From Escherichia phage vB_EcoM_ESCO45: a DNA stretch of 64,000 bases. Under the pieces are notes generated by a model. It ran no database searches. It worked only from the letters and a program-made list of their open reading frames with translations, and was not told the origin of the DNA. The stretch is from the sequence record OM386661.1, one strand, 5' to 3'. Positions 24,836-50,647 of the stretch are shown piece after piece (within the stretch, counting starts at the first letter, position 1; every line of letters begins with the position of its first letter). Position numbers and translations under genes: made by a program.

Positions 24836-25036
24836 ATGAAGATGAGAGTAAAAGACAATTTTAAAGTGATTGACCACCGTTTAGTGGAACTCTCATCTCT
24901 TTCCAATGAGGTAATGATTGAACGTCTTAAGAGAGTTGAATCACGAAGGAAAGAGATTGCAGATGAAATTCATGAACTGGACAAGATTGAAAATGGACTG
25001 AAGGTAGAACTACAACGAAGAGGTGCTAATGTCTAA
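24836..25036 (+). CDS. hypothetical small coiled-coil protein
   Basis: 66 aa ORF. Confidence 0.3.
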   Translation: MKMRVKDNFKVIDHRLVELSSLSNEVMIERLKRVESRRKEIADEIHELDKIENGLKVELQRRGANV

Positions 25037-27014
25037 AGGTCGTAAATTGAAAGAGGCTGGTCAGTTTATTGGTCATTGTGCATGTCCACGTTGTGGTTCA
25101 TCAGATGCTGGTTCAATCTATCATCATGATGATGATTCTTATTCGATGACTTGCTTTAGTTGTAACAAAGGTTTCCCAGAGTGGGATTTTGATAAAGGAC
25201 AAATCGTGAGCGCTTATTCTACTGGTTCAGACAATAAAAACCGTACTTTCCGTGGGATGGATTTAGACGATGTGAAAGAAAACCTTGAAGCAATGGACTT
25301 AAAGGACAGGAAGATTCCTGCAAAAGTCCTTGAACGCTTAGGTATCAAGGTTGACATTGACAGTGACGGTGAAATTGATGCGCACTTCTATCCGACTTAC
25401 AAACGTAATGAAGATGGCAAGCTAGAGCATGTTGGCTACCGTGTTCGTCACCGTTACCCAGAAGACCATCCAAAAGAGCACCTACGTGGTAAGTTAAAAG
25501 ACTTTTCAGGTGGTGTTGGAGACATTAAAGGTGAACTGGCAATGTTCGGTTCATGGATTGCTCCAGAAGGCGGTAACCGTCTATTCATCTGGGAAGGTGA
25601 GATGGAATGTGCGACAGCAATCTATATGACTTCTTTGGCGATTAAAGATAAGTCTCGTCGTAAGAATTACTGTCACGTATCTGTTCCATCAGGTGCAAAC
25701 ATTAAGTCTATCAAAGACAACTACCAGTACATCACATCATTTGATGAGATTTACTTGTGCTTTGATAACGATGAAGCAGGTGCTAAAGCCACTAAAGAGG
25801 CTGCTGGTATCCTACCCATTGAGAAGGTTCGTTTATTCCAGTATCCAGAAGGTGTAAAAGACCTTAACGAGTGGTGGACAAAGTTCTATAAAGAGAAAGA
25901 TACAGTTCTGGAAGGATTTAAGCAGCGTATCTACAATGCACCTCGTTACTGCCCTGCTGGTATCAAGAACTTCGCAGATGGTTTTGAGGCAATGAAGAAT
26001 CGTGGTCAGATTCCATTGATTCCTTTCCCAGAATCTTTCGGAGATTTGAACAGGCTGACTTATGGCGGTTATGGTTTAGGTGAGATTACAACTCTGGCAG
26101 CACCATCTTCAGTGGGTAAATCTGCATACACTCGTGAAATGATTTATACTGCTTGGAAAGATACCGATTACAACATTGGTGTAATTCCTGTAGAAGATAC
26201 CTATGAAGAGTTGATGGAGATGCTCTGTGCAATCCACCTGAGCAAGCAGATTTCTGAGATTCCTTATGACGAACGTGATTGGGATGAATTGAAGGAGGCA
26301 CACGCAGAACTGTCTAAAGGTCGTCGTATCCACATCGTTGACCATCAAGGGGCAATTGACCAAGATAACTTGCTGGAATTTGTTGACTATCTTGTTAACA
26401 GTTTAGACTGTAAGATTATTATTCTTGACCCTATTACGTTGGCTCTGTCACGTTCAGATACGGATGAAGAGGAAGTTTTGTCTGAGCTATTGCGTCGTTG
26501 CAAACGCTACCAGTATGCACAGGTAAACGTCTGTCACGTTCGTAAGAGTGCAGGTGGTCAGAAGGCTAACTCTGAAGGTGGAGATATCTCTGAAGAGGAT
26601 ATTAAAGGCTCTGGTGCGTATTTCCAGATTTCTATGAACAACATTCTGTTAATGCGTAACAAGGTTGACCCAGACCCTGTTAAGAAAAACTTGACAAAAA
26701 TCAAGTTAACTAAATGTCGTCGTCACGGTAAGTCAACGGGTATTGCTGGTCATACTTGGTACAATCCAGATACAGGGCGTCTTATCAAAGCATCTGGTTG
26801 CGGAGTTGACATTGACGGTGCAGCAGAAAATATTCGCCAACAGTTTGGCATTGGTGAAGCTGAAGACCATTACGATGACTCTTTGCCACATTATGAGGAT
26901 GAAGTGTTTGACCGTGATACTGGTGAAGTCTATACTGAAGAGCAGCGTCAAAGCTCAACGATTCCACCTGTATTAAGTGAGGATGCAGATGACTGCCCGT
27001 TCGAAACTGAGTGA
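25029..27014 (+). CDS. bifunctional DNA primase-helicase (T7 gp4-like)
   Basis: N-terminal Zn finger CACPRCG...CFSCNKG, TOPRIM-like FDNDEAGAKA, helicase Walker A APSSVGKSAYT and Walker B IIILDP; ATG 25029 preferred over GTG 25023. Confidence 0.8.
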   Translation: MSKGRKLKEAGQFIGHCACPRCGSSDAGSIYHHDDDSYSMTCFSCNKGFPEWDFDKGQIVSAYSTGSDNKNRTFRGMDLDDVKENLEAMDLKDRKIPAKVLERLGIKVDIDSDGEIDAHFYPTYKRNEDGKLEHVGYRVRHRYPEDHPKEHLRGKLKDFSGGVGDIKGELAMFGSWIAPEGGNRLFIWEGEMECATAIYMTSLAIKDKSRRKNYCHVSVPSGANIKSIKDNYQYITSFDEIYLCFDNDEAGAKATKEAAGILPIEKVRLFQYPEGVKDLNEWWTKFYKEKDTVLEGFKQRIYNAPRYCPAGIKNFADGFEAMKNRGQIPLIPFPESFGDLNRLTYGGYGLGEITTLAAPSSVGKSAYTREMIYTAWKDTDYNIGVIPVEDTYEELMEMLCAIHLSKQISEIPYDERDWDELKEAHAELSKGRRIHIVDHQGAIDQDNLLEFVDYLVNSLDCKIIILDPITLALSRSDTDEEEVLSELLRRCKRYQYAQVNVCHVRKSAGGQKANSEGGDISEEDIKGSGAYFQISMNNILLMRNKVDPDPVKKNLTKIKLTKCRRHGKSTGIAGHTWYNPDTGRLIKASGCGVDIDGAAENIRQQFGIGEAEDHYDDSLPHYEDEVFDRDTGEVYTEEQRQSSTIPPVLSEDADDCPFETE

Positions 27015-27084
27015 TAGTTATAAAAGAGAGGGGTTCACACCCTTCTTTGAAGAAAAAAGTTTAAATAAATTTCAGGAAGAGTGT

Positions 27085-27113
27085 TTGACAAAGCTTGATA
27101 GGTTCTATAGAAT
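27085..27113 (+). promoter_or_regulatory. sigma70-like promoter
   Basis: TTGACA-N17-TAGAAT. Confidence 0.55.
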
Positions 27114-27266
27114 GCTCCTCATGAAATGCGATGGGGAAGTTGAGGTAAAAGAAGATTTCCACCAAAGCATGATTACAGTCATTATTTCACTGCATCAGCA
27201 TAACATTAGCTGGCTGTTTATAATGAAAGAAAACGTGTTTGAATATCAAGTATATCGGAGAATATC

Positions 27267-27416
27267 ATGAAACACTCTAAAGCATTTGAAAAAGTTTTTG
27301 GGGATTCCTTAAAAGCCACTGCTGGAAAACCAGCAAAATACTATGAAGAAAAACGTGTAAGAACTGGAAAAACTGCACGTAAAGCAGCTTCTAAAGATAA
27401 GCACAACTTCCAGTAA
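27267..27416 (+). CDS. possible small basic protein (49 aa)
   Basis: Short ORF with RBS GGAG 8 nt upstream, between two consensus-like promoters; below ORF-track size cutoff. Confidence 0.2.
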   Translation: MKHSKAFEKVFGDSLKATAGKPAKYYEEKRVRTGKTARKAASKDKHNFQ

Positions 27417-27423
27417 TTAGTAT

Positions 27424-27452
27424 TTGACAATAGAGTATCAACAAACTAGAAT
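27424..27452 (+). promoter_or_regulatory. sigma70-like promoter upstream of SSB gene
   Basis: TTGACA-N17-TAGAAT, 37 nt upstream of ATG 27489. Confidence 0.6.
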
Positions 27453-27488
27453 TGGTACTCTTCATAAATTGAGATAGAGGTTTAAATA

Positions 27489-28343
27489 ATGTCTAAAGTT
27501 GTTAAAATGAAAGCTCCGGTAGAGAAGTACAACGGTACTGAACGTCAAACTCTGCGTTACCTGCTGAAAGATGTCTGGTTTTATTACTTGAATACTTCAC
27601 CACGTCCGGGGAAAGGTAAGTCTATTGATAAGAAATTCCCAGGCAAAGACTGTAACTACAGCGTATCAATTCTGGCAGAAGACGGTAACAAACTATTTAA
27701 AGAGTTTACTAAGTCTAAGAAGAACCCAGAAGGTTGGGATAAAGTTACTACTGAAGCAGTTGATGCAGATGACTTCGAAGAGAAGTTTGGTTGCAAACCA
27801 CCTTTTGAAGCAGACACTTACCACATCTTGAAAGTAAGTCGTGCAGCAGCTTATAAAGATGGTGCTGTATGGACAGCTAAACAGTCATTCCCTGTAATGC
27901 TGATTGAAGAAGTAAATGGTAAGCGTGTAGCTGTTAAACAGCCGATGAAGAAAATCAAAGCTCAAGCATCTGATAAACATGAAGATGACAAGAACTATGA
28001 TGTAATTCATCCAGATATTGCAGTTGGTAACGGTTCTTTTGGTAGTGTGATTCTTTCTACTCACTTCTACACTTTTGAGAACAATGTTCTGACAAAACCT
28101 ATTCAGGAACAGTTTATCATTGATACTCTTGTACCTTACGCTGGCGGTAACGGTGCTAATGGTGAACCTGAACTGGATGAAGATGAACTGGCTATGCTTG
28201 GTCTTGACGGTGTTGAAGATAACGGTGAAATCACTGAAGAAGACGCAACAGACCACAAACCTTCGAATGATTCTGATGATGATGAAGAAGATTTGCCAGA
28301 CCCAGATGACGAAGAAGATGAAGACTTCGATACAGAAGACTAA
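27489..28343 (+). CDS. single-stranded DNA-binding protein (T7 gp2.5-like, acidic C-terminal tail)
   Basis: 284 aa; strongly acidic C-terminus ...DEEDEDFDTED with terminal aromatic, hallmark of gp2.5-type SSBs; sits between helicase and exonuclease. Confidence 0.5.
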   Translation: MSKVVKMKAPVEKYNGTERQTLRYLLKDVWFYYLNTSPRPGKGKSIDKKFPGKDCNYSVSILAEDGNKLFKEFTKSKKNPEGWDKVTTEAVDADDFEEKFGCKPPFEADTYHILKVSRAAAYKDGAVWTAKQSFPVMLIEEVNGKRVAVKQPMKKIKAQASDKHEDDKNYDVIHPDIAVGNGSFGSVILSTHFYTFENNVLTKPIQEQFIIDTLVPYAGGNGANGEPELDEDELAMLGLDGVEDNGEITEEDATDHKPSNDSDDDEEDLPDPDDEEDEDFDTED

Positions 28344-28360
28344 TCTCTAAAAGTTACTTT

Positions 28361-28390
28361 AAAGCCCTGTACTCAGTATGGGGCTTTTTC
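28361..28390 (+). terminator. rho-independent terminator after SSB gene
   Basis: AAAGCCC-loop-GGGCTTT followed by TTTTC. Confidence 0.45.
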
Positions 28391-28405
28391 ATATGGAGAG
28401 CCATA

Positions 28406-29446
28406 ATGGAGAAGTACACATTAACAAAACTTCCCGATTCAGTTACACATGTTTTTATTGACTCTGACAGTATCGCCTATAAAGGTGCTTGTGTAGTTGA
28501 GAAAGCAAAGTATAAATACGTCAATAAACTCACAGCAGAAGAATCTGAGCCATTTGATAATGCGAAAGATGCTGCAAGATGGTTAGCAGACCAGAGAATC
28601 CTTGTGGAAGAACTTGGCCTGACATTTGATGAAGATGAATGGGAAAGACAGACTTGGAAAGAAGCTAAGAGCGAAAAAGAAGCTATCATGGCTACTCAAC
28701 AGGTTCTTCAGGAATGGCTTAAGGTTGTTGGTAAAGAGAGAACTTGGGTAGGCTATTTAACAGAGAAAGGTGTGCATAAACATAAAGACGTTAAAGGTCT
28801 TGAGCACCAATATCAAGGTAACCGCAAAGATGCTGTCACACCAACACACTTAGTTGCTTGTCGTGAATATCTTTTATCCAGACCAGAGTTCAAACTAATT
28901 CTTGATGGATTTGAAGCCGACTCTATCGTTATTGCTAAAGCTGAAAAGATGGGTAAAAAGGCTGCCTTAATGAGTATTGATAAAGACCTTCGCCAAGCTG
29001 AAGGAACTTACTGCATTGATATGACCTATGAAAAGTCACCTTTGATTTTCATTGCTGATAACAACGTTGGTGAAATTTGGGATTGCCCAATAAAATCAAC
29101 ACCAAAAGCTAAGAAGACAGTTGGTGTAGGTTTTAAATTCCTTTGTTACCAAGCTGTGGCTGGTGATAACGCGGATAATTATTTTGGTTTAAAGGGCGTT
29201 GGTAAGGCTACTGTAATGAAAGCACTTGAAGGTAAAACCACCTACAAAGAGTGTCTTGATGCAATTTATGAGCTTTATGCTAAGAAAGAGTCATACACTT
29301 ATGTCTCGTGGGATGGTCAAACAATCACCAGAACACCTTTAGAGTTAATGCAGCAACACTTTTTCTTAGCTTATCAGGAAAGAAACAAGAAAGACGATTT
29401 CACTTTTAAGAAATATAATTGGGAGCCGTGTATGAATGAAGATTAA
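28406..29446 (+). CDS. 5'-3' exonuclease (FEN / T7 gp6-like)
   Basis: 346 aa; N-terminal VFIDSDSIAY acidic cluster and SIDKDLRQ...WDCPIKS similar to T7 gene 6 exonuclease layout. Confidence 0.55.
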   Translation: MEKYTLTKLPDSVTHVFIDSDSIAYKGACVVEKAKYKYVNKLTAEESEPFDNAKDAARWLADQRILVEELGLTFDEDEWERQTWKEAKSEKEAIMATQQVLQEWLKVVGKERTWVGYLTEKGVHKHKDVKGLEHQYQGNRKDAVTPTHLVACREYLLSRPEFKLILDGFEADSIVIAKAEKMGKKAALMSIDKDLRQAEGTYCIDMTYEKSPLIFIADNNVGEIWDCPIKSTPKAKKTVGVGFKFLCYQAVAGDNADNYFGLKGVGKATVMKALEGKTTYKECLDAIYELYAKKESYTYVSWDGQTITRTPLELMQQHFFLAYQERNKKDDFTFKKYNWEPCMNED

Positions 29447-29933
29447 AGGATTTGGCAATTGCCCTACCTATGGTCATTGGGTATCTTTATGTGGGGAAGT
29501 TGACCCCACTAAACATTTTGGCTTTGTCTATTTAGTACACTGTAAGAAGACTGGACAATATTATATCGGAAAGAAACAGCTTAACAGTGTGACCAAAAGA
29601 AAAGTTGCTGGGAAGACTCGGAAGAAGGTAGTCACTAAGGAAAGTGATTGGCTGACTTACGAGACTTCTTCTGAGTATATTAAAAAAGATATTGAAAGCT
29701 TTGGAAAGGAATCTTTTGACTTTTACATTATTCAGACCTACTACACAAAAGGTGGCCTAGTCTATGGTGAAGCAAACCTTCAACATAAATTCGATGTAAT
29801 GACAAAAAGGATTGACTCTAAGCTCAGACTCTTCTACAATGCCAACATTGCAGCAATTAAGTTTATTACTAAAGAAACTTATGAAGATGCTGAAAAAAGA
29901 ATCCATAAGGTAATGAAAGCAAATTGTGCTTGA
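29436..29933 (+). CDS. GIY-YIG-like nuclease domain protein
   Basis: 165 aa; FGFVYLVHCKKTGQYYIGKK resembles GIY-(10-11 aa)-YIG spacing followed by basic segment. Confidence 0.35.
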   Translation: MKIKGFGNCPTYGHWVSLCGEVDPTKHFGFVYLVHCKKTGQYYIGKKQLNSVTKRKVAGKTRKKVVTKESDWLTYETSSEYIKKDIESFGKESFDFYIIQTYYTKGGLVYGEANLQHKFDVMTKRIDSKLRLFYNANIAAIKFITKETYEDAEKRIHKVMKANCA

Positions 29934-39165: not shown

Positions 39166-39333
39166 ATGTGGGATGGTGATAAGCTGAAAGCTGTAGATGG
39201 CTATGGACTCCAGAGTTTTGCAGATGTACTTGACCACCCAGCTTGTGCTTTACGTTTAGTCTTTAGTGACTCTGAGCAGTTTGGTTACACAACTCTTGGC
39301 GATATTCGAAACAATATTGACAAGCAGCTTTAA
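39166..39333 (+). CDS. possible small protein (55 aa)
   Basis: Short ORF ending 14 nt before terminator 39347-39370; weak RBS; below ORF-track cutoff. Confidence 0.25.
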   Translation: MWDGDKLKAVDGYGLQSFADVLDHPACALRLVFSDSEQFGYTTLGDIRNNIDKQL

Positions 39334-39346
39334 AAGTATATGATAA

Positions 39347-42280: not shown

Positions 42281-42310
42281 TTGACAAGGGGCTTTGAAGC
42301 CCCTTAGAAT
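42281..42310 (+). promoter_or_regulatory. sigma70-like promoter with hairpin embedded in spacer (upstream of rIIB-like gene)
   Basis: TTGACA-N18-TAGAAT; spacer contains inverted repeat AAGGGGCTT/AAGCCCCTT. Confidence 0.45.
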
Positions 42311-50561: not shown

Positions 50562-50647
50562 AAGTGCTTTACAAGGTGCTTATAGTTCGATATAGTAAGC
50601 ACCAGATAAAGAGCTTTATCACTAAACCCTAGACTGGAGATTCAAAA
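50562..50647 (+). promoter_or_regulatory. family A cassette copy 2
   Basis: Near-identical to copy 1 (one substitution ATAAAG to ATATAG). Confidence 0.55.

Follow-up and report, generated by a model that had tools for sequence, protein, structure and literature searches.

A 64,000-nucleotide (nt) stretch of the genome of Escherichia phage vB_EcoM_ESCO45 (sequence record OM386661.1; hereafter, the window) carries, between positions 27,085 and 27,452, two copies of the sequence TTGACA-N17-TAGAAT, a near-consensus match to host sigma-70 promoters. Both lie upstream of a gene for a likely single-stranded DNA-binding protein (SSB), in the vicinity of two small open reading frames (ORFs), gp102 and gp103. 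What purpose would two such sites serve so close together? The account that we favor, and hold to be probably correct as a whole, is that the downstream site, P2, is a dedicated promoter of the SSB gene, that gp102 and gp103 are real genes, and that the upstream site, P1, is a probable internal promoter embedded in gp102. We read the arrangement as ordinary phage transcription architecture and not as a new regulatory RNA or peptide. The features on which this account turns are the following.

26989-27270, + strand: gp102, a 93-amino-acid (aa) gene (Felix O1 ORF102, phrog_4982) that contains P1; full-length PHROG match at 1e-49
27085-27113, + strand: P1, TTGACA-N17-TAGAAT, inside gp102; predicted +1 at 27120/27121
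27267-27416, + strand: gp103, gene for a 49-aa basic protein (Felix O1 ORF103, phrog_4424), with the Shine-Dalgarno sequence GGAG at 27257-27260
27424-27452, + strand: P2, TTGACA-N17-TAGAAT, within the 72 nt that separate ORF103 from ORF104; predicted +1 at about 27457-27460
27489-28343, + strand: 284-aa probable T7 gp2.5-like SSB gene (Felix O1 ORF104), assigned by Foldseek and an acidic C-terminal tail
28364-28389, + strand: intrinsic terminator after the SSB gene, gccctgtactcagtatggggc followed by ttttt, read from the sequence

Two exact promoter-like sequences

P1 has its TTGACA at 27085-27090 and its TAGAAT at 27108-27113; in P2 the same hexamers occupy 27424-27429 and 27447-27452. Both sites are on the + strand with a 17-nt spacer, each matches the consensus at 11 of 12 positions, and 339 bp separate them. 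A preliminary description of the window had claimed two near-consensus sigma-70 promoters about 340 bp apart, and its coordinates, strand and spacing proved exact. TTGACA-N17-TAGAAT occurs only at P1 and P2 when both strands of the 64 kb are considered; dinucleotide shuffles contain a mean of 0.02 exact matches, and at least two matches were seen in 0 of 100 shuffles. The two exact sites exceed chance, and the observation is confirmed. Between 20 and 36 kb, P1 and P2 are the only matches at 11/12, and the whole window holds nine promoter-like sites of that quality. Two sites elsewhere, at 39317-39344 on the + strand (11/12) and at 61131-61103 on the - strand (10/12), have strong terminator hairpins (GGCTCC-nnnn-GGAGCC-TTTTT) within a few bases; either these promoters are spurious, or promoter and terminator overlap there too.

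The comparisons below use a promoter-region alignment of 35 unique sequences from Felixounavirus, Mooglevirus, Suspvirus and two further IMG/VR lineages. Beyond this alignment, the region was also read in Pectobacterium phage Arno162, Yersinia phage P778, the Erwinia Kolesnikvirus phages and Hafnia phage Zyzzx.

P2 as the probable promoter of the SSB gene

P2 is oriented toward the SSB gene, with 36 nt between the end of its -10 element and the ATG, and it combines a -35 element, a 17-nt spacer and a -10 element with A-11 and T-7. The -35 element, the 17-nt spacing and the pattern TAnnnT are retained in all nine lineages examined, Felixounavirus, Mooglevirus, Suspvirus, Arno162, P778, Kolesnikvirus and the Hafnia phages among them, while the flanks diverge. 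The -35 element reads TTGCAA in the Erwinia phages, TTGACT in the Hafnia phages and TTGACA otherwise. In Kolesnikvirus and the Hafnia phages, which lack the small ORFs, a P2-type promoter and then the 284-aa gene come immediately after the helicase gene. P2 is the very site already annotated as 'promoter' in NC_028825.1 (Escherichia phage vB_EcoM_AYO145A) and MZ726791.1 (ASO1A), where it is described as 'similar to TTGACA(N15-18)TATAAT with 1 bp mismatch'. Felix O1 itself is reported to rely on the host RNA polymerase (RNAP), and its genome paper lists similar sites (PMC3185647). Its sequence and conservation thus mark P2 as an ordinary, widely conserved promoter of the SSB gene.

What does the 284-aa gene encode? 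Neither a Pfam search (nothing at E <= 0.1) nor a PDB sequence search with a profile of the protein (no meaningful match) was informative. An AlphaFold model built with 12 homologues, at a predicted local distance difference test score (pLDDT) of 61 and a predicted template modeling score of 0.61, was compared to known structures by Foldseek. The top hits were the DUF2815 protein 4klk (1.4e-4), the Enc34 SSB 5odk (6e-4; also 5odl and 5odj) and T7 gp2.5, 1je5 (1e-2); hit probabilities were 0.66-1.0, the TM-scores were low (0.24-0.48), and nothing else came close. The C-terminus is acidic (...DEEDEDFDTED; ...DDDEEDLPDPDDEEDEDFDTED), and F280 within this tail is invariant among the 12 homologues. 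Amino-acid identity of the protein between genera is 84-91%. The fold, and an acidic tail with a phenylalanine near its end, are common to the T7 gene 2.5 SSB, the Enc34 SSB and DUF2815. The gene is part of a T7-like replication module, with a gp4-like primase/helicase gene on one side and a 5'-3' exonuclease gene on the other. Unlike the T7 gp2.5 relatives, the protein has no detectable sequence similarity to them, and the pLDDT of its model is only moderate; unlike T7 gene 2.5, the gene lies under a predicted host-type promoter and not under a phage RNAP promoter. We identify the 284-aa protein as a gp2.5-like SSB with moderate confidence. The preliminary description had the promoters pointing at SSB and exonuclease genes, which agrees with this fold assignment and with the phrog_107 exonuclease downstream.

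The SSB gene ends at the intrinsic terminator, which is the t104 of Felix O1, listed as gccctgtacttagtatggggcttttt in Table 2 of its genome paper (PMC3185647). Terminators are annotated at the equivalent place in the AYO145A, ASO1A and Michonne records. The SSB transcription unit consists of P2, the SSB gene and this terminator. A dedicated promoter and terminator around an SSB gene are unsurprising.

gp102 and gp103 are protein-coding genes by comparative evidence

It had been proposed that P1, lying inside the reading frame 26977-27270, argues against that frame being a gene over its full length. The description of the frames themselves was accurate: the ORF overlaps the helicase stop at 27014, it contains an in-frame ATG at 27121, and a separate 49-aa ORF follows at 27267-27416. 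The argument drawn from P1 fails, because the part of gp102 upstream of P1 is the best-conserved part of the protein. Annotators place the start at ATG 26989, 6 nt after the Shine-Dalgarno sequence GAGG (26979-26982), and both signals are conserved. The gene is annotated in relatives, and the frame is open and conserved in five lineages, in every genus. Two phages without P1, Pectobacterium phage Arno162 and Yersinia phage P778, also carry homologues, at 18-20% identity: an unannotated ORF in the former and ORF079 in the latter. A hydrophobic pattern (F16/F19/F28/F39/V51/F77/Y86) is invariant along the whole length down to this level of identity. The AlphaFold2 model (pLDDT 74) is a single alpha+beta domain in which a helix (residues 27-47), whose DNA carries P1, is joined to a four-strand sheet. 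A fold search of the PDB with this model gave no hit below E 0.1, and Pfam returned nothing for the three small or uncharacterized proteins, gp102 and gp103 included. The substitution pattern makes a weak case for coding, as the ratio of nonsynonymous to synonymous differences per site (pN/pS) between genera is 0.5-0.6, weakly below 1; the maintained frame, the start signals, the in-frame indels and the residue pattern make a stronger one. Taken together, these comparisons identify gp102 (26989-27270) as a real protein-coding gene over its full length. The GenBank annotation overlooks the Arno162 homologue, a 97-codon ORF at 2466-2759 of MK290737.1 (locus L041) that overlaps the 3' end of the helicase gene.

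The same evidence disposes of 27121-27270 as a separate small ORF. It is just the C-terminal half of gp102; no Shine-Dalgarno sequence precedes it, and lineages outside Felixounavirus lack its ATG. This half begins with a segment of unusual variability.

27120-27199, + strand: hypervariable segment of gp102 (codons about 45-71), beginning exactly at the predicted +1 of P1

Among 25 Felixounavirus sequences, nucleotide diversity in this segment is 0.13-0.24, versus 0.00-0.06 in the other 20-nt windows of 26900-27519. Purifying selection is still present, with pS of 0.36-0.55 and pN/pS of 0.31 over codons 47-93. Its start at the predicted +1 of P1 suggests either a boundary of recombination or mosaicism or a rapidly evolving domain.

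The other small ORF of the preliminary description, 27267-27416, stands as a real gene, gp103. Its start overlaps the gp102 stop in ATGA, the GGAG of its Shine-Dalgarno sequence sits 6 nt before the ATG, and homologues are found in Arno162 (orf116) and P778 (ORF080). The ratio of nonsynonymous to synonymous substitution rates (dN/dS) between genera is 0.05-0.24 at a dS of 0.75-1.8, with constraint along the whole length. Only 16 database clusters contain the protein, all within the Felix O1-like phages. Purifying selection of this kind points to a small protein-coding gene.

P1 as a candidate internal promoter

P1 has the -35 element, -10 element and spacer of a sigma-70 promoter. A sigma-70 match at 11 of 12 positions with a 17-nt spacer is expected to bind RNAP wherever it is located. 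Because such a match with optimal spacing is intrinsically strong, as is generally known for sigma-70 promoters, P1 probably fires as an internal promoter. All 28 Felixounavirus loci, Felix O1 among them, carry the identical site. Its equivalent in Mooglevirus, Suspvirus and the loci L037 and L038 is TTGACT (TTGACG in L037), a 17-nt spacer and TAAAGT, such that TTGAC and the -10 bases T-12, A-11 and T-7 are retained in all 35 unique sequences. P1 lies 37 nt past a conserved gene-end hairpin, which repeats the layout of hairpin and then promoter found at P2. P1 appears to be an addition specific to Felixounavirus and its closest genera. Like known bacterial and phage intragenic sigma-70 promoters, it is a strong match that lies within a coding sequence, on the sense strand, and precedes the genes that follow in the operon; it differs from them in that its conservation is confounded with coding constraint and in being a candidate known from sequence.

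Could P1 instead be a fortuitous match that arises from gp102 codons (E-C-L-T-K ... F-Y-R-M) and has no selected role? If so, only P2 and the upstream helicase-operon promoter would matter, and initiation at P1 would be noise. We regard this reading as possible, though not the likely one. The site lies wholly within conserved coding sequence, as codons L33-T34 (TTG ACA) and Y40-R41-M42 (taT AGA ATg). Codons for conserved gp102 residues are in any case 71-80% identical between genera, and retention of the TTG is not unusual. The comparative data do not cleanly separate conservation of P1 from coding constraint. Moreover, the site is degraded to 9/12 in the sister genera Mooglevirus and Suspvirus, and it is absent in Arno162 and P778, which carry the same two small genes; the genes can thus be arranged in this way without P1. 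The sequence around P1 is unstructured (z +1.6), without the stem-loop architecture seen at P2 and at the promoters at 42281 and 50568, and several other 10-11/12 matches fall inside long ORFs of this AT-rich genome. Annotators who listed promoters marked P2 only. The literature yielded no primary start-site mapping or RNA-seq of Felix O1-like phages, and we infer the activity of both P1 and P2, and likewise their start positions, from sequence. All of these points weigh against P1 as a selected promoter.

Several observations count against a chance match. By chance, the exact pattern would turn up 0.02 times per window, and, as noted, an 11/12 site with a 17-nt spacer should bind RNAP anywhere. 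When gp102 was recoded synonymously with the phage's own codon usage, only 0.7% of the recodings gave an 11/12 site; this figure is post hoc, and a genome of roughly 130-150 genes would be expected to yield about one such case by chance. T-12, A-11 and T-7 persist through replacements of all three amino acids encoded at the -10 element (Y to G, C or A; R to K; M to V). An allele in protein cluster P0096 has R41I, and if AGA were changed to ATA there, the -10 element would become a perfect TATAAT. P1 is unannotated in the records of Felix O1-like phages examined; the Felix O1 paper considered intergenic sites only, and it lists P102 nearby (PMC3185647). On balance, we retain P1 as a probable internal promoter.

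Does P1 drive something other than the downstream genes? Transcription that started at A27121, the first base of Met45, would produce a leaderless mRNA encoding the hypervariable beta-sheet half of gp102 as a C-terminal isoform of 49 aa. The -10 element ends 8 nt before A27121, with C at -1 and A at +1, the ATG lacks a Shine-Dalgarno sequence, the hypervariable segment starts at the same point, and the ATG is retained in 25 of 25 unique Felixounavirus DNA sequences. Against this, the position is AAC in Mooglevirus, Suspvirus, L037 and L038 and encodes Ile in one Felixounavirus protein cluster, P0086. The gp102 model shows one domain, with helix 27-47 ahead of the four-strand sheet, and the literature on Felix O1-like phages offers no experimental start site for such an RNA. 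We consider a leaderless isoform very unlikely.

Least credible of all is the suggestion in the preliminary description of a leader RNA or small regulatory peptide, bracketed by the tandem promoters and controlling SSB and exonuclease expression: two strong tandem sites upstream of the SSB gene, a 49-aa ORF between them and a conserved stem-loop between that ORF and the SSB gene invite such a model, but gp103 is constrained over its full length like a functional protein and unlike a leader peptide, Kolesnikvirus and the Hafnia phages retain P2 and the stem-loop without any small ORFs, the stem-loop is without a U-tract and showed no alternative fold in competition with it, and between P1 and the 49-aa ORF lies coding sequence, the hypervariable half of gp102. 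An Rfam scan of 26500-28600 at E <= 1 gave three chance-level matches far below the gathering scores (best E 0.4-0.7). The P1-P2 interval lacks the hallmarks of a leader peptide, an attenuator or a cis-regulatory leader.

Stem-loops at the promoters and gene ends

Two stem-loops lie 11-16 nt past stop codons in the region.

27025-27048, + strand: stem-loop AGAGAGGGGU-ucac-ACCCUUCUUU, minimum free energy (MFE) -13 kcal/mol, z -2.6
27432-27461, + strand: stem-loop around the P2 -10 element, MFE -9.8 kcal/mol, z -3.0

The first begins 11 nt past the helicase stop, within gp102 codons 13-20, and is flanked by A-rich and U-rich runs. Equivalents are found in Mooglevirus, Suspvirus and L037 (z -2.6 to -3.5). 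It could be a weak terminator or the 3'-end hairpin of the helicase message.

The second encloses most of a promoter. Its left arm, AGAGUAUCAA (27432-27441), follows the -35 element and its right arm, UUGGUACUCU (27452-27461), follows the -10 element; the 10-bp A/U-rich stem closes a 10-nt loop that holds most of the -10 element, the last T of which pairs in the 3' arm. We judged this hairpin by per-lineage folding z-scores and by comparison of the sense and antisense strands, as MAFFT alignment puts the arms of distant lineages out of register. An equivalent hairpin with different arm sequences is present in nine of the nine Ounavirinae lineages folded (z -1.8 to -4.4; loci L005, L006, L037, L041-L044 and L046), with arm pairs such as GGAGUAC/GUACUCC, GUGAGGGUA/UACUCUCAC and AGGUGGGU/ACUCACCU. 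Read on the sense strand, every pair that departs from Watson-Crick pairing is G.U, and in 9 of 11 sequences the sense strand gives the more stable fold of the two strands. Because the left arm lies upstream of the P2 start, the hairpin could form only in read-through RNA or in DNA. Although its position past a stop codon is that of Rho-independent terminators and gene-end hairpins, it is not a standard terminator, because most lineages have no U-tract; UCAUAAAUU follows the stem, the loop is 10 nt long and a terminator scan did not call it. The true terminator of the region is that at 28364-28389.

Similar hairpins without a U-tract accompany the promoters at 42281 (hairpin at 42287-42304) and 50568 (50578-50607); that at 42281 lies wholly within the promoter spacer and is conserved across genera. 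Might such hairpins at P2, 42281 and 50568 be functional, marking or stabilizing the upstream 3' end, or modulating the passage of polymerase, just where the next transcript begins, and thereby tying the end of one unit to the promoter of the following one? We regard this as a speculative and rather doubtful possibility. A promoter inside a hairpin is not general to the promoter-like sites of the window; that proposal was rejected, as the arrangement was seen only at 27424, 42281 and 50568. A terminator-like site on the minus strand at 27336-27319 was treated as chance, and the corresponding + strand hairpin is not retained in Mooglevirus.

Genomic context

Over 26000-29500, the sequence shares 98% identity with Escherichia phage vB_EcoM_ESCO50. 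This region matches 258 phage records, and nearly all of these belong to Felix O1-like phages from E. coli, Salmonella, Shigella and Citrobacter. By this sequence similarity the window belongs to a Felix O1-like phage (Felixounavirus). Two of the related records present an enterobacterial Ounavirinae region under the name of a phage with a Gram-positive host: GU169904.1 (Staphylococcus phage SA1) is 93% identical over 26950-27520, and the promoter region of OK283618.1 (Listeria phage LPML1) reads essentially as that of the Hafnia phage. Mis-assignment or contamination probably explains both records.

The local gene order is consistent across public annotations; in Felix O1 names it is ORF101 primase/helicase, ORF102, ORF103, ORF104 and ORF105 5'-3' exonuclease. 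ORF102 (93 aa), ORF103 (49 aa) and ORF104 (284 aa) are each annotated "hypothetical protein". The features that flank the SSB unit and the small genes are these.

25023-27014, + strand: primase/helicase gene (Felix O1 ORF101), with Pfam Toprim_2 and DnaB_C; annotated DNA primase/helicase in relatives
26908-26936, + strand: third, weaker promoter-like site, TTGACC-N17-TATACT (10/12), within the helicase 3' end
28406-29446, + strand: 5'-3' exonuclease gene (Felix O1 ORF105), from a phrog_107 exonuclease match at 5e-66 and annotations in relatives

The third site is the one predicted as P102, TTGACC(N17)TATACT, in the Felix O1 genome (PMC3185647); in Mooglevirus its -10 element is not retained (TACACA). 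Felix O1 is stated to encode neither an RNAP nor any obvious factor that would change the specificity of the host polymerase, and to have host-like promoters ahead of early and late genes alike (PMC3185647). In reverse transcription PCR of Felix O1, transcripts of ORF101 and ORF104 were maximal at 25 min and those of ORF105 at 5 min; ORF102 and ORF103 are absent from the table of these results, Table 3 (PMC3185647).

A model for transcription of the module

How might these elements work together? A Felix O1-type replication module would be transcribed by host sigma-70 RNAP in the order primase/helicase, gp102, gp103, P2, gp2.5-like SSB, terminator and exonuclease. gp102 and gp103 would be translationally coupled to the helicase gene, first through the 26 nt that the helicase 3' end shares with the start of gp102 and then through the ATGA overlap. 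P2 and the terminator at 28364-28389 would form a self-contained cassette for a protein needed in stoichiometric amounts. P2 is retained even where the SSB gene directly follows the helicase gene. Transcripts from P1, beginning at about 27120/27121, would cover gp103 and read through P2 into the SSB gene. If P1 is active, it is only in this sense that P1 and P2 would be tandem promoters. The mildly novel elements are only the promoter-embedded hairpins and the hypervariable module boundary.

For general biology, this arrangement carries little weight. For the Felix O1-type phages, which are widely used in typing and biocontrol of Salmonella and E. coli, it confirms a conserved host-type promoter-terminator cassette for a gp2.5-like SSB and corrects a tempting misreading of the two small genes upstream. 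Annotation gains as well: ORF104 can be named a gp2.5-like SSB, with the moderate confidence given above, ORF102 and ORF103 can be treated as real genes, and the unannotated ORF102 homologue of Arno162 can be added. If P1 is active, it would provide a clean case of a gene-internal promoter at the edge of a hypervariable module.

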